Positions 28,467 to 35,742 of a stretch of 64,000 nucleotides of DNA are shown here, piece by piece. The DNA is from Actinomycetes bacterium (GTDB lineage: Bacteria > Actinomycetota > Acidimicrobiia > Spongiisociales > JAHEDJ01). Under the pieces are notes generated by a model. That model saw only the letters and a list, made by a program, of their open reading frames with translations. It did not search any database and was not told the DNA's origin. A program made the translations under genes and the position numbers. How positions within the stretch are numbered: position 1 is the first letter of the stretch; the number at the start of each line of letters is the position of its first letter. The stretch covers positions 6,584-70,583 of the forward strand of contig JAHEDK010000004.1 of assembly GCA_024641245.1 (NCBI GenBank), in the 5' to 3' direction.

Positions 28467-28534
28467 GGGCCGGTCTCACCATTGGCTCGCTCCAGTCCCG
28501 GTGACCGATCTCAGACTGGAGTTCATGGCCTCCC
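28467..28534 (-). promoter_or_regulatory. conserved leader element, copy A
   Basis: Minus-strand reading: GGGAGGC-N24-AUCGGUCACC-GGGACUGGAGCGAGCCAA-UGGUGAGACCGGCCC. It ends 19 nt before the AGGAGG SD of protein A. The same blocks occur upstream of proteins B and C. Confidence 0.45.
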
Positions 28535-28601
28535 GAGCCAGGTTTCATCATCTCATTGGGCAGACAATCACACAATGGGCCTCCGGCCCTATCGCGCAAC
28601 T

Positions 28602-28625
28602 GGGCCCCGGAGAACTCCGGGGCCC
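28602..28625 (-). terminator. GC-rich hairpin downstream of surface protein B
   Basis: GGGCCCCGGAG/CTCCGGGGCCC inverted repeat 25 nt after the stop. There is no clear U-tract. It is similar in sequence to the hairpin after protein C. Confidence 0.4.
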
Positions 28626-28649
28626 AGCGTTTCCTTCCTCCCGCCGTTG

Positions 28650-31886: not shown

Positions 31887-34800
31887 CTATTCGTCCCAGG
31901 CCGGATGCACAGCCTCGGCCACCACCGTCTCGAGGAGGTCCTCTCGCCGGCGCATGGCCAGCAAGACGAACCCACCCAACACGATGAGCACGAGAGCGGT
32001 TCCCGCCACATCACCCTGACCGAACCCGGTGAACGGCAATGTTGAAATTGTCGTCGTCGCCACCGTGGTGGTCGTCGTGGTGGTGGTGATCACCTGAGGC
32101 GATACGAAGATCTTGATCATTCCCGCATCGAAGCTGGTGTTCGTTTCACCGGCGGCGAGCGAGAACGGAAGCGTCTCGGCGATCTCGAAGTGCTCTGCAT
32201 CCTCGCCGCTCCCGGACTGGAAGACGGCATCGCTGTCGACAGAGTCGTCGTCGCCCTGGTCGACGAGTCCGAACTCCCACGACTTCGGTGTGGTGAACCG
32301 AAGGATGTAGTCACCCTCTTCAACACCCGAGAACTCGTAGGCACCGTCGGCGCCGGTCGTCGTTGAGGCAATCACCTCACCCGTGTCGGCATCGACGAGT
32401 TCGACGAGCACACCTTCGACGCCAACCTCGTTGGCGTCCTGGATGCCATCCTCATCGGTGTCGTTCCACACGAAGTCACCGATCGTCCCGGTCGGCTTGT
32501 CGGTCACAGTGACGGTCGCGTCGTCGTCATCTTCAATGAAGACGCCGTCATCATCTTCCGCGACCACCGTTACGACGTTCGTGTGGACATCGCCGGCGTT
32601 GCCGAGAACATCACCCTCGAACGAGCACGTGTAGGACTCACCGACGGCGAGCTTCTGCGGGACCTCACAGTCGCCTAGGCCGTTGAGATCCCCGTAGACA
32701 TCGTCGACGAGCGAGGCCACGATCAACATATCGACGGCGCTCGTGTTCTCGACCACCACGGTGAAGGTGACGGTCCCGCCCGGTTCGGCGATCTGAGTGA
32801 CGGCGGGTGTCTTGGTAACGAGGATCGACGAAGGCACATCGATCACGGAGACCGATGCATCGTCATCGTCGGTTGCCTCGTTCTCTTCATTGTCCATGAC
32901 GGTCACTGTGGCGAGGTTGGGATATATTCCCGGTGCCGTGTGGTCAACGGTGTACGTGCATGAGACGCTGTCACCTTCATCGCCCGCCGGGCTGAGCGTG
33001 ACACCAATCAGATTCAGACAATCGGCCGACAATGCATTGGTATCCGTCAGCGCCGTGATCTCCACCGCTTCCTGCGACGGATTGGTAATGATCAAGGTGT
33101 AGGTGAAGCTGCCGCCCGGTTCGTTGAGGAACAGCGGATCGGCCGTCTTCTGGAGGCTGATCGCAATCGGCGTGTCCGTGACCGTCACGGTCTCATCGTC
33201 GGTATCGGACGCAGGGTTGCCCTCATTGTCCTCAACTGTCACCGACGCCGTGTTGTCATACGAACCAGCCTCAGTGTGCGTCACCGTATACGAGCAGGAC
33301 AGACTCCCGCCCACCGGAATCCACTGGCCAACCAGACTCGTGCAATCGACCGGCAACGTGTAATCATCAGACAACGCCGTCACCTGCACCGGCTCAATCG
33401 TGGTGTTGTAGATCGTGAGTGTGAAAGCGAACTCACCACCCGGTTCGGGCAACGAACCCGGCGAAGCGTCCTTCACCAAATCAACAGACGGCAACACATC
33501 GACAACCGTGACCGTCTCAGCGGCCTCGGCCGACGCCGAGTTGCCGTCGTTGTCCTCGACCGTCACCGACGCCGTGTTGTCATACGAACCAGCATCGGTG
33601 TGAGCAACCGTGTACTCACACTCAACCGTCTCACCCACAGCCAGCACAGAACCCTCCAGCGCAGAACACGCCGAGAAGTCCGTCGCACCAGACTGAGAAT
33701 CCGACAAATCGGTGATCGTCACCGGCTCCACCGACGTATTCGTAACCGTCAACGTGAAGACGAAGTCACCACCAGGCTCGGGCAACAACGACGGCACAGC
33801 CGACTTCGCCAACTCCACCGTCGGCAACACGTCCGTCACCGTCACCGTCGCGTCATCGTCGTCGGATACGGGGAATCCGTCGTCGTCGGTGCCGTTGGCC
33901 GTCACGACGTTAGTGTGAATGAATCCGGCGTCGCCGGACACCATTCGCTGGAAGAAACATGCCAAGGAGGCATTTGGGGCCAGATCCGCCCCAATCAGAG
34001 CTCCGCAGTTGCCCTGTCCGGCAAGGTCGCCGAACCTATCATCAATCAACGAATCGATTGTGACCGTATCGACAGCGCTTGTGTTCTCGACGGTGACATC
34101 GAAGATGACGGGGGCACCAGGTTCGGGCACAGTCGTCTTCCGCGGTGTCTTCGTCACCAGGATCGACGAGGGAAGGTTGTCGAATGTGACGATGGCGTTG
34201 TCGGTCGCCACCGCGCTCAGGCCGGCATCATCCTCCGCCGTCGCCGTCACGGTATTCAGGTGATCGGCGAAGTTCCCGGACAAGAGCCCCTTCGTGATGG
34301 AGCAGGTATAAGCGCCCCCCGGGGAAGCGAGCAACTGGGGTACAACACAATCGCCCTGACCGTTCAGATTGCCAAACGTGTCGTCGACGAGCGAGGTCAG
34401 GGTCACATCCTCCGGGCCGGTATTGGTGACTGTGAAGGTGAACGTCACGTCGCCGCCCGGTTCGGGAAGACTTGTCGGATCGGCCGTCTTCGTTACCGAG
34501 ATGGCCGGCTGCACGTTTTCGATCGTGCAGGTAACGACATCGCCGAGTGCCAGATCGACGCTCACACCGGCAGTTCGGGAGTCCCCGTCGTCACCGCTAG
34601 AGCACGAATAGCCCGCGAAGTTCCATCCGACACCGAAAGGATCGTCCTCGACGACCGTGTAGGTCCCCGGCAAGAGGTCAAATGACTGAGAGGATCCATC
34701 GCTTGCCAGTGACCCGGACCCCGACCAGCCGCCGAAGGCGCCGGCCGTCACGCCGAAGGTGAATGGTCCCGTGCCTTCAGCAGGCGTTGTGTCTTTCTCA

Positions 34801-35639
34801 ACTATCAGGGTGGCACAGTTGCTAATTGAGATGTCGCCAGGCCCGGTGGTGTCTTTGAGCGACGCAGGAAGACCGTTGCCGACCTTCCCAATCGCGAGAA
34901 TATTGGCCAGATCGAGGCACTGATCCGGTGACGTCGGCGGTGGGAAGATCCCGAACGCCGTGAGGTTGACGGCCGCCTCGAAAAACAGGTTGTTTGCGCT
35001 CGCCGATCCACCAAAAGCGGTCGACGAACTCGCCGGACTCCATACCGATCCGGTCCACGTCCAAGCACGCACCTCAGTGAGGGACTGTCCTCCATAGTTG
35101 AACTCGAGAAGAACGTCGCCGGCCGTTCGGTAGACGGTATTTGGGACGATCGTGTTCTGGTTGAGCACAACGAACACTGATGTGTCCCCATTTGGAGAGA
35201 CCTTGGTACCGCCGAAGTAGAAGATCACCTGACCGCCGACGACCTCATACGCGGTGTAGGTCTGGCAGAGGTTGGCCTTGTCCGCTGGAGGAGGCGGTGC
35301 GGAAGTGAACTGCAGGGGATTGTCCGCAATCTGCCCCTTCAAGGTAGTCAAATCGTTTGCCTTGGCATCACAAAGGGTCGGAACCAACGAGGGATCCGTA
35401 ATAACGGCGCCGGGAGTTCCGGTGTACTCGTAATCGTCGATCACCGACAGATTCGGCGGTGGGCTCAGCCAATCGGTTTGACCCGGCGCGGCAACGGTAT
35501 CCCCGTCTGTGACATTCATTGACGTCAGGCCTAACGCCGCCTCGGCGCTCTCGGGCATAACGACCAGGAACGAACCCACTACCAACAGAAATGCAAGCGC
35601 GGCTATGCCGGCTGCCCTCGAGATAAGACCCTTTTTCAT
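31887..35639 (-). CDS. LPXTG-type cell-wall-anchored surface protein C (1250 aa)
   Basis: Start: the ATG at 35639 is preferred (GGAGG upstream); the track starts at 35657.

Layout: signal peptide, a unique tip of about 280 aa, one prealbumin-like repeat, and about eight DUF11-like repeats of about 108 aa (V.KTA.P..LPEPGG.V.FT..V.NT....V.I..L.D). One SdrD-B-like unit follows, then poly-Thr and the sorting signal LPFTGFGQGD + TM + RRRED. Confidence 0.85.
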   Translation of the reverse strand: MKKGLISRAAGIAALAFLLVVGSFLVVMPESAEAALGLTSMNVTDGDTVAAPGQTDWLSPPPNLSVIDDYEYTGTPGAVITDPSLVPTLCDAKANDLTTLKGQIADNPLQFTSAPPPPADKANLCQTYTAYEVVGGQVIFYFGGTKVSPNGDTSVFVVLNQNTIVPNTVYRTAGDVLLEFNYGGQSLTEVRAWTWTGSVWSPASSSTAFGGSASANNLFFEAAVNLTAFGIFPPPTSPDQCLDLANILAIGKVGNGLPASLKDTTGPGDISISNCATLIVEKDTTPAEGTGPFTFGVTAGAFGGWSGSGSLASDGSSQSFDLLPGTYTVVEDDPFGVGWNFAGYSCSSGDDGDSRTAGVSVDLALGDVVTCTIENVQPAISVTKTADPTSLPEPGGDVTFTFTVTNTGPEDVTLTSLVDDTFGNLNGQGDCVVPQLLASPGGAYTCSITKGLLSGNFADHLNTVTATAEDDAGLSAVATDNAIVTFDNLPSSILVTKTPRKTTVPEPGAPVIFDVTVENTSAVDTVTIDSLIDDRFGDLAGQGNCGALIGADLAPNASLACFFQRMVSGDAGFIHTNVVTANGTDDDGFPVSDDDDATVTVTDVLPTVELAKSAVPSLLPEPGGDFVFTLTVTNTSVEPVTITDLSDSQSGATDFSACSALEGSVLAVGETVECEYTVAHTDAGSYDNTASVTVEDNDGNSASAEAAETVTVVDVLPSVDLVKDASPGSLPEPGGEFAFTLTIYNTTIEPVQVTALSDDYTLPVDCTSLVGQWIPVGGSLSCSYTVTHTEAGSYDNTASVTVEDNEGNPASDTDDETVTVTDTPIAISLQKTADPLFLNEPGGSFTYTLIITNPSQEAVEITALTDTNALSADCLNLIGVTLSPAGDEGDSVSCTYTVDHTAPGIYPNLATVTVMDNEENEATDDDDASVSVIDVPSSILVTKTPAVTQIAEPGGTVTFTVVVENTSAVDMLIVASLVDDVYGDLNGLGDCEVPQKLAVGESYTCSFEGDVLGNAGDVHTNVVTVVAEDDDGVFIEDDDDATVTVTDKPTGTIGDFVWNDTDEDGIQDANEVGVEGVLVELVDADTGEVIASTTTGADGAYEFSGVEEGDYILRFTTPKSWEFGLVDQGDDDSVDSDAVFQSGSGEDAEHFEIAETLPFSLAAGETNTSFDAGMIKIFVSPQVITTTTTTTTVATTTISTLPFTGFGQGDVAGTALVLIVLGGFVLLAMRRREDLLETVVAEAVHPAWDE

Positions 35640-35672
35640 TTCTCCGCCTCCCCTCACTTTCGTGACGGGGCG

Positions 35673-35742
35673 GGGCCGGTCTCACCACTAGCTCGACTGG
35701 ATCCAGGTGACCGATTTATCGGACCCAGTGTCGTCGCCTCCC
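35673..35742 (-). promoter_or_regulatory. conserved leader element, copy C
   Basis: GGGAGGC-N23-AUCGGUCACC-UGGAUCCAGUCGAGCUAG-UGGUGAGACCGGCCCC, followed by hairpin CCCCGUCAC-GAAA-GUGAGGGG, which overlaps the SD. Confidence 0.45.

Follow-up and report, generated by a model that had tools for sequence, protein, structure and literature searches.

Three genes in a 64,000-nucleotide stretch of DNA from an uncultured Acidimicrobiia-type actinomycete (GenBank assembly GCA_024641245.1, contig JAHEDK010000004.1; the whole stretch is hereafter the window) encode LPFTG-bearing surface proteins, here called A, B and C, and the leader of each carries a c-di-GMP-II-GAG aptamer of Rfam family RF03169, in family membership as in fold. 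The initial annotation had described the element common to these leaders as unassigned, a claim that fails since all three copies match the existing family above its gathering score. The finding is thus already known, because the element belongs to an existing, curated family; the variant was reportedly defined by Weinberg, Nelson, Lunse, Sherlock and Breaker (2017, PNAS) as a binding-site variant of the c-di-GMP-II class, c-di-GMP being cyclic dimeric guanosine monophosphate. The three copies are independent, each heads its own LPFTG adhesin unit, and each is probably a c-di-GMP ON switch. A scan of the whole window with Rfam at the gathering threshold (40 bits for RF03169) gave three matches, spanning model positions 1-86 of 86 in every case and none truncated:

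28459..28542, minus strand: aptamer A, RF03169 at 65.7 bits, model 1-86 of 86, upstream of gene A
31607..31702, minus strand: aptamer B, RF03169 match 31607-31694 at 57.4 bits, full length
35665..35752, minus strand: aptamer C, RF03169 match 35665-35750 at 65.9 bits, full length

On the minus strand, 11-29 nucleotides (nt) separate the 3' end of each aptamer from the ATG of the gene that follows, which places the aptamers in the predicted 5' untranslated region (UTR). With overlaps within the RF03169 clan suppressed, no other Rfam family reached its own threshold at the three leader sites; the suppressed, lower-scoring clan matches numbered two at the gathering level and six at E <= 1, and another family of the same clan also attained its gathering score at two of the three sites. 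RF03169 was the top clan member at all three, and canonical c-di-GMP-II (RF01786) was not the best model. For the three variant G, A and G nucleotides at ligand-contacting positions, the result is an indirect one: the GAG model scored higher than the canonical and GCG models. No match to c-di-GMP-I (GEMM-I, RF01051) was found in 28300-36000 at E <= 1; this class likewise senses c-di-GMP and controls surface and motility genes, but its fold is unrelated to that of the window aptamers.

The four ordered blocks from which the element was first recognized are borne out on the minus (mRNA) strand at 28467-28534, 31615-31686 and 35673-35742. They read GGGAGGC (block 1), (A/U)UCGGUCACC (block 2), (G/U)CGAGC (block 3) and UGGUGAGACCGGCCC (block 4), and the spacing of blocks 1 and 2, given originally as 20-24 nt, is 18-20 nt upon recounting. 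Block 4 is indeed a 15-mer without a single difference among the copies; it occurs three times in the window, still three times when two mismatches are permitted, against an expectation of 0.31, and none of 100 shuffles contained three. The blocks have also diverged less than their surroundings, as had been asserted: pairwise identity is 73-76% across the 68-72 nt core of the leaders, compared with 48-54% in the 70 nt upstream of the core, 59-64% in the first 90 nt of the coding sequence and 51-53% in coding nucleotides 91-300. Copy-specific hairpins were confirmed in all three leaders, namely CAUCCGU/ACGGAUG, CCCCGUCAC/GUGAGGGG (with one bulged G) and ACCUA/UAGGU. A scan of the three leaders for the sigma-70 consensus found no promoter.

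Placed on the Rfam alignment, these blocks resolve into three helices and a pseudoknot. P1 joins the GGG of block 1 to the CCC that ends block 4, a core of 3-4 base pairs (bp) in the window copies, and P2 joins the GGC of the same block 1 to GC(C/U) of block 3 (3 of 3 bp). P3 is an 8-bp stem built from the seemingly "variable" stretches that flank block 2; it had been overlooked, as had both pairings of block 1. The P3 strands differ in sequence between the three copies yet pair fully:

P3 of copy A: CUCCAGUC/GACUGGAG, 8 of 8 bp
P3 of copy B: CUUCGACC/GGUUGAAG, 8 of 8 bp
P3 of copy C: ACUGGGUC/GAUCCAGU, 8 of 8 bp

In each of the copies, CGGUCACC in the P3 loop forms a pseudoknot with GGUGAGACCG, which a replacement of the loop by, for example, CGGUGUGC would break. 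The pairing of blocks 2 and 4 with a GA bulge, proposed from the sequence at the outset, is real and constitutes the pseudoknot of the c-di-GMP-II fold, supported by an A-U/G-C switch in relatives. The accompanying picture of block 3 enclosed in a loop was incomplete, since block 3 (GAGC) is itself a strand of P2, opposite the GGC of block 1, and the 8-bp P3 flanks block 2. Beyond the core, two of the copies possess a distal extension of P1:

31696-31702 with 31608-31614, minus strand: distal P1 of aptamer B, AUGGGGC with GCCCCAU, 7 bp, from the sequence and the aptamer-enforced fold
35747-35751 with 35667-35671, minus strand: distal P1 of aptamer C, GGGGC with GCCCC, from the sequence

Compared with the RF03169 model, the outer P1 of the window copies is not collinear, with the distal P1 of B and C set across an internal loop and only 4 bp in A, and the pseudoknot has A-U where the family consensus has G-C, a compensated change. 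Otherwise the two are alike in their P1/P2/P3 and pseudoknot architecture, 5'-UTR position, actinobacterial host range and invariant nucleotides (GGA-GGC, GA, CGGUC(R)CC, GAGC and UGG(Y)GAGACCG), and there is no essential difference between them.

Relatives were gathered by a pattern scan of species-representative genomes, in which two pseudoknot positions (R, Y) were left free to vary independently; at least 120 loci were obtained. A covariance model was then trained on the three window copies, with the pseudoknot left out, and searched against the window and loci L001-L099, from which it recovered 99 copies, those in the window being the three known sites only. Most of the matches listed come from Actinomycetota (Acidimicrobiia, Coriobacteriia, Frankiales and Mycobacteriales) and Chloroflexota (Limnocylindria). 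In the 99-copy alignment, standard pairs fill 97.5% of cells, as opposed to 80% in shuffled alignments and 27-49% with slid partners. Double changes were seen at every one of the eight P3 and three P1 pairs (12 of the 14 nested pairs overall), and across 97 distinct relatives each nested helix is paired in 96-98% of cells. The pseudoknot, on which the model held no information, is paired in 98.9% of cells in relatives: pair 59-149 is AU in 68, GC in 22 and unpaired in none, and another is CG in 89 and UA in 1. Moreover, rescanning 17 of the relative loci with Rfam gave at least one RF03169 match above threshold in all 17. Because of this pairing and covariation and the rescan matches, the structure is real and the family assignment secure. 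About 10 of the 120 listed pattern matches fall inside coding genes, mostly of Alphaproteobacteria, and were rejected as false positives, which the covariance model did not recover. The alphaproteobacterial loci L001, L008, L009, L093 and L107 carry a chance look-alike in coding sequence, CGGTCGCCTTGGT....GAGCGGATGGCGAGACCG, with no GGGAGGC upstream.

The ligand of the three aptamers is probably c-di-GMP itself. A change of specificity within the same fold and family, by which the GAG variant would sense another cyclic dinucleotide or linear pGpG, is unlikely, though several points speak for it and weigh against c-di-GMP. Rfam separates the GAG variant because its ligand-contacting positions differ from those of canonical c-di-GMP-II, and at every window site the other clan members score below the GAG model. 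The abstract of the defining paper is said to have raised this very possibility, stating that variants "might recognize different bacterial signaling molecules". Neither experiments on the ligand of the GAG variant nor binding data for it were found in the searchable literature, and the variant names turned up there only in surveys listing them. On the other side stand the gathering-level score of the second clan family at two window sites, gene associations of the kind expected for c-di-GMP, namely LPXTG adhesins, BldD and family-2 glycosyltransferases (PMC9481103, PMC11477304), and the surveys themselves, which place the variant among the c-di-GMP classes by name only (PMC12452182). These associations argue for c-di-GMP without proving it. 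Less probable still is the further idea that the variant senses another nucleotide and that the adhesin island between clpX and valS or mreB, described below and pictured here as a variable array of riboswitch-adhesin units with a lineage-specific CAC/GUG hairpin ahead of each, is wired to a second-messenger pathway new to Acidimicrobiia.

The canonical c-di-GMP-II riboswitch (RF01786; Lee et al., 2010, Science) has its clan and overall pseudoknotted fold in common with the window aptamers, and differs from them in the primary sequence of the core, its model scoring below the GAG model at the window sites. Canonical switches also control sortase-anchored surface proteins (PMC9481103, PMC11477304) and mostly precede genes for surface-anchor proteins (PMC9481103). 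In Clostridioides difficile, examples are found before CD2831, CD3246 and the pilA1 operon; CD2831 and CD3246 are adhesins induced at high c-di-GMP (PMC11477304). The characterised canonical cases are ON switches, as is proposed for the window copies. Clostridial c-di-GMP-II switches employ intrinsic terminators or, once, a group I ribozyme, whereas the window copies are without a terminator and probably act on the ribosome-binding site.

How the three leaders might do so is suggested by alternative helices that tie the 3' strands of each aptamer to its ribosome-binding region, to which a regulatory role is ascribed by inference:

28433..28477, minus strand: platform A, putative alternative helix, -25.5 kcal/mol, z = -2.9
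31582..31616, minus strand: platform B, putative extended hairpin, -19.8 kcal/mol, z = -1.4 (weak)
35622..35686, minus strand: platform C, putative alternative helices, -30.1 kcal/mol, z = -3.7

In platform A, the pseudoknot 3' strand GAGACCG pairs with CGGUCUU of codons 3-5, and the P1 3' strand CCGUA pairs with UGCGG, which overlaps the start codon (28445-28447). This helix, present also in the unconstrained leader fold, encloses the ACCUA/UAGGU hairpin, whose loop holds the Shine-Dalgarno (SD) sequence GGAGG (28452-28456). Platform B consists of CCGC-CC-CAUCCGU with ACGGAUG-GG-GCGG, that is, CCGCCCCAUCCGU/ACGGAUG..GG.GCGG; the hairpin takes up CCGCCCCAU, which also belongs to the P1 3' strand, and part of the SD region GAGGAGCGG is paired within it (SD 31585-31590, start codon 31575-31577). 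In platform C, GGUGAGACC of the pseudoknot 3' strand pairs with GGUCUUAUC of codons 4-6, and the CCCCGUCAC/GUGAGGGG hairpin has CCCC in common with distal P1 and covers part of the SD, GGGGAGG at 35647-35653 (start codon 35637-35639). Since the distal P1 3' strand of B and C overlaps the alternative helix, the two would be mutually exclusive, as expected of a switch. Genes A and C have GGUCUU (Gly-Leu) as their codons 4-5 (28431-28437 and 35622-35630, minus strand), complementary to GAGACC of the pseudoknot 3' strand. Gene B does not have GGUCUU at these codons, and the motif could reflect a common signal-peptide ancestry or form part of the expression platform.

According to the proposed mechanism, the pseudoknot 3' and P1 3' strands of the ligand-free leader would pair with the ribosome-binding region or early codons, hiding or enclosing the SD and AUG. 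Binding of c-di-GMP would lock the pseudoknot and P1, and the locked aptamer would release the ribosome-binding site, such that adhesin synthesis would be on at high c-di-GMP. Translational control of ON polarity is likely, though somewhat less so than c-di-GMP as the ligand. Evidence for ON polarity comes from relatives. In about 10 copies from Coriobacteriia and Anaerolinea, the 5' arm of an intrinsic terminator is AGACCGGC, i.e. the pseudoknot/P1 3' strand itself (...GCCGGUCUUUU); therefore, ligand-stabilised folding must block termination in these copies. In syntenic Acidimicrobiia copies, the P1 3' strand CCUGUCCC is fully complementary to an SD-like GGGAUAGG a few nt before the start codon (z of -2 to -3.2). 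Family-wide, the aptamer 3' strand pairs better with the ribosome-binding-site window than with shuffled windows (Wilcoxon p = 4.6e-5).

Several results stand against translational ON control. Relative to a control window within the open reading frame (ORF), the family-wide preference is marginal (p = 0.058), and the three window copies are individually non-significant (z = -0.2, -0.5 and +0.9); in a broader duplex test, in which the 75 nt after the aptamer were paired with its 3' strand, there was no difference from shuffles (mean z = -0.42), and the alternative helix of copy B is weak. The predicted probability that the SD is unpaired rises on enforcing the aptamer in copy B only, from 0.50 to 0.83, the sole change in the expected direction; it shows no rise in copy A (1.00 to 0.78) or copy C (0.34 vs 0.27). 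Plain minimum free energy folds of the whole leaders were noisy, and the pseudoknot lies outside their model. The backing for the three window platforms, as modelled, is modest.

Some of these results could be accommodated by c-di-GMP riboswitches of OFF polarity, or by an effect on transcription (such as Rho-dependent termination) or on the stability of the mRNA in place of translation initiation; such arrangements are considered improbable. In both modelled states, a hairpin loop contains the SD of copy A, whose accessibility dips when the aptamer is enforced; for copy C the values are those given above (0.34 vs 0.27). No intrinsic terminator was found after the window aptamers, which leaves a route through Rho or RNase. 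These readings are opposed by the relatives with clear terminators, whose use of the aptamer 3' strand as terminator arm is compatible with ON only, by the pairing of the P1 3' strand with the SD in syntenic relatives and by the ON behavior of canonical c-di-GMP-II adhesin switches (PMC11477304).

Two of the window copies bear an accessory hairpin upstream of the aptamer, outside RF03169, which copy A lacks:

35757..35775, minus strand: 5' hairpin/palindrome UGACCAC-AAAGA-GUGGUCA, just upstream of aptamer C, from the sequence
31703-31717, minus strand: related GUCACA-ACA-UGUGAC, upstream of aptamer B, from the sequence

At the same place, 23 of 98 related copies have a CAC-N3-8-GUG hairpin of at least 6 bp, compared with 0.8% of random 60-nt windows. 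Its form is xxCAC-N3-8-GUGxx, often GACCAC-N5-GUGGUC, with 6-7 bp (e.g., L083, L085, L034, L010, L046 and L040). The distance from its start to the aptamer downstream is about 15-48 nt (mostly 22-34); it lies just 3' of promoter-like TTGAC(A/T)...TATG(T/G)G sequences and may be either an operator or a stem-loop at the 5' end of the mRNA. That the blocks themselves form a protein-binding DNA operator or a leader-peptide attenuator is scarcely credible: their strong sequence conservation and the palindrome just upstream of copies B and C, which could itself be an operator, are outweighed by a strand-specific, full-length Rfam match, by the lack of any conserved upstream open reading frame and by compensatory double changes that keep P3 at 8 of 8 bp in the three copies and across the 97 distinct relatives, a signature of RNA structure. 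Because of these compensatory changes in P3 and the pseudoknot, both readings were rejected. The original suggestion of a cis-acting RNA or a protein-binding DNA site, but not a leader peptide, was consequently right about the RNA and the leader peptide, and its DNA-site option falls.

Downstream of the 99 copies are mostly genes for proteins with signal peptides, many ending in LPFTG, and the Pfam domains found there include SpaA, SdrD_B, DUF11 and DUF7507. Two downstream genes of relatives encode family-2 glycosyltransferases. BldD is an actinobacterial c-di-GMP-binding master regulator and effector, and its homologues (helix-turn-helix plus BldD-like_C, E = 1e-36) lie directly downstream of an RF03169 aptamer in three relatives, which are metagenome-assembled genomes (MAGs) of Frankiales and Mycobacteriales:

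L016:489-974, minus strand: BldD homologue
L062:2702-3187, plus strand: BldD homologue
L096:538-1059, plus strand: BldD homologue

A fourth locus, L044, encodes a BldD-like N-terminus on a gene fragment too short for the domain scan. The position of the aptamer before BldD homologues suggests that a c-di-GMP effector is itself under riboswitch control.

In the window, the genes under the three leaders are as follows, by Pfam and translation:

24818..28447, minus strand: gene A, 1209 amino acids, signal peptide, SpaA_4/SpaA_2 repeats, SdrD_B, LPFTG anchor
28650..31577, minus strand: gene B, 975 amino acids, DUF7507, DUF11, two SdrD_B, SpaA_4, LPFTG anchor
31887..35639, minus strand: gene C, 1250 amino acids, five DUF7507, DUF11, SdrD_B, LPFTG anchor
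28600..28627, minus strand: GC-rich terminator-like hairpin after gene B, 12-bp stem, dividing unit B from A
31836..31861, minus strand: GC-rich terminator-like hairpin after gene C, GGGGCUCCGGAGCAAUCCGGGGCCCC, dividing unit C from B

Besides a signal peptide, all three proteins carry an LPFTG sortase motif with a hydrophobic tail after it, features that mark them as predicted wall-anchored, adhesin-like proteins; they are 43-48% identical in their best-conserved C-terminal part. The intergenic spaces bearing the leaders, for which a putative length of 120-170 nt had been given at the outset, measure 202, 309 and 276 nt, and the first two each contain the terminator hairpin of the upstream gene. 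As these hairpins, which are long and GC-rich and have no U-tract, end genes B and C, each riboswitch-gene pair forms its own unit. Matches to the sRNA family BjrC68 at these positions are sub-threshold (22.8 and 18.6 bits vs 39), arise from the GC-rich hairpins and were rejected as members of that family.

The trio is placed between tig-clpP-clpX (clpX at 35916-37181) and valS-folC-mreBC-PBP2-rodA (valS at 22101-24698). The same chromosomal slot, with clpX-clpP on one side and valS or mreB on the other, is occupied in about 20 MAG loci among the matches listed, including L040, L098, L048, L007, L054, L019, L046, L083, L105 and L118; most of these MAGs are labelled Acidimicrobiia, and their clpX/clpP are 72-76% identical to those of the window at the nucleotide level. 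Each such locus holds 1-3 riboswitch-gene units, and the protein content is highly divergent. The shared slot, variable unit number and divergent proteins thus define a conserved yet variable adhesin island. The synteny and the clpX/clpP identity also agree with the taxonomic guess made from the sequence at the outset; the exact ClpX product had no match on record, and adhesin A turned up on a single 9.7-kb Logan contig of run SRR12825431 only. Three loci titled Acidobacteriota (L019, L048 and L076) have the same clpX-clpP/riboswitch/adhesin gene order, and their nucleotide identity to the window and to Acidimicrobiia MAGs is 74-75%, so their bin labels may be wrong. The window also has two tRNA clusters, at 39231-39711 (minus strand) and 41359-41565 (plus strand), and a transfer-messenger RNA gene at 52910-53267 (minus strand, 168 bits); the four-tRNA cluster that adjoins tig occurs in the syntenic loci L007 and L048 as well. 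An HD-GYP protein is encoded at 60736-62076 on the minus strand (PF13487 HD_5; motifs HDIGK and HHARFDGRGYP), and this ORF is a candidate cyclic-dinucleotide phosphodiesterase, in keeping with c-di-GMP as the ligand.

The value of these aptamers as a discovery is small, because all three would be annotated by any routine scan with Rfam. The window nonetheless supplies three natural, sequence-diverse aptamers of the GAG variant. As annotation they are useful: an uncultured Acidimicrobiia-type bacterium is predicted to produce three large proteins, wall-anchored and adhesin-like, in response to c-di-GMP, and such a response of adhesins would constitute the classic motile-to-sessile switch.

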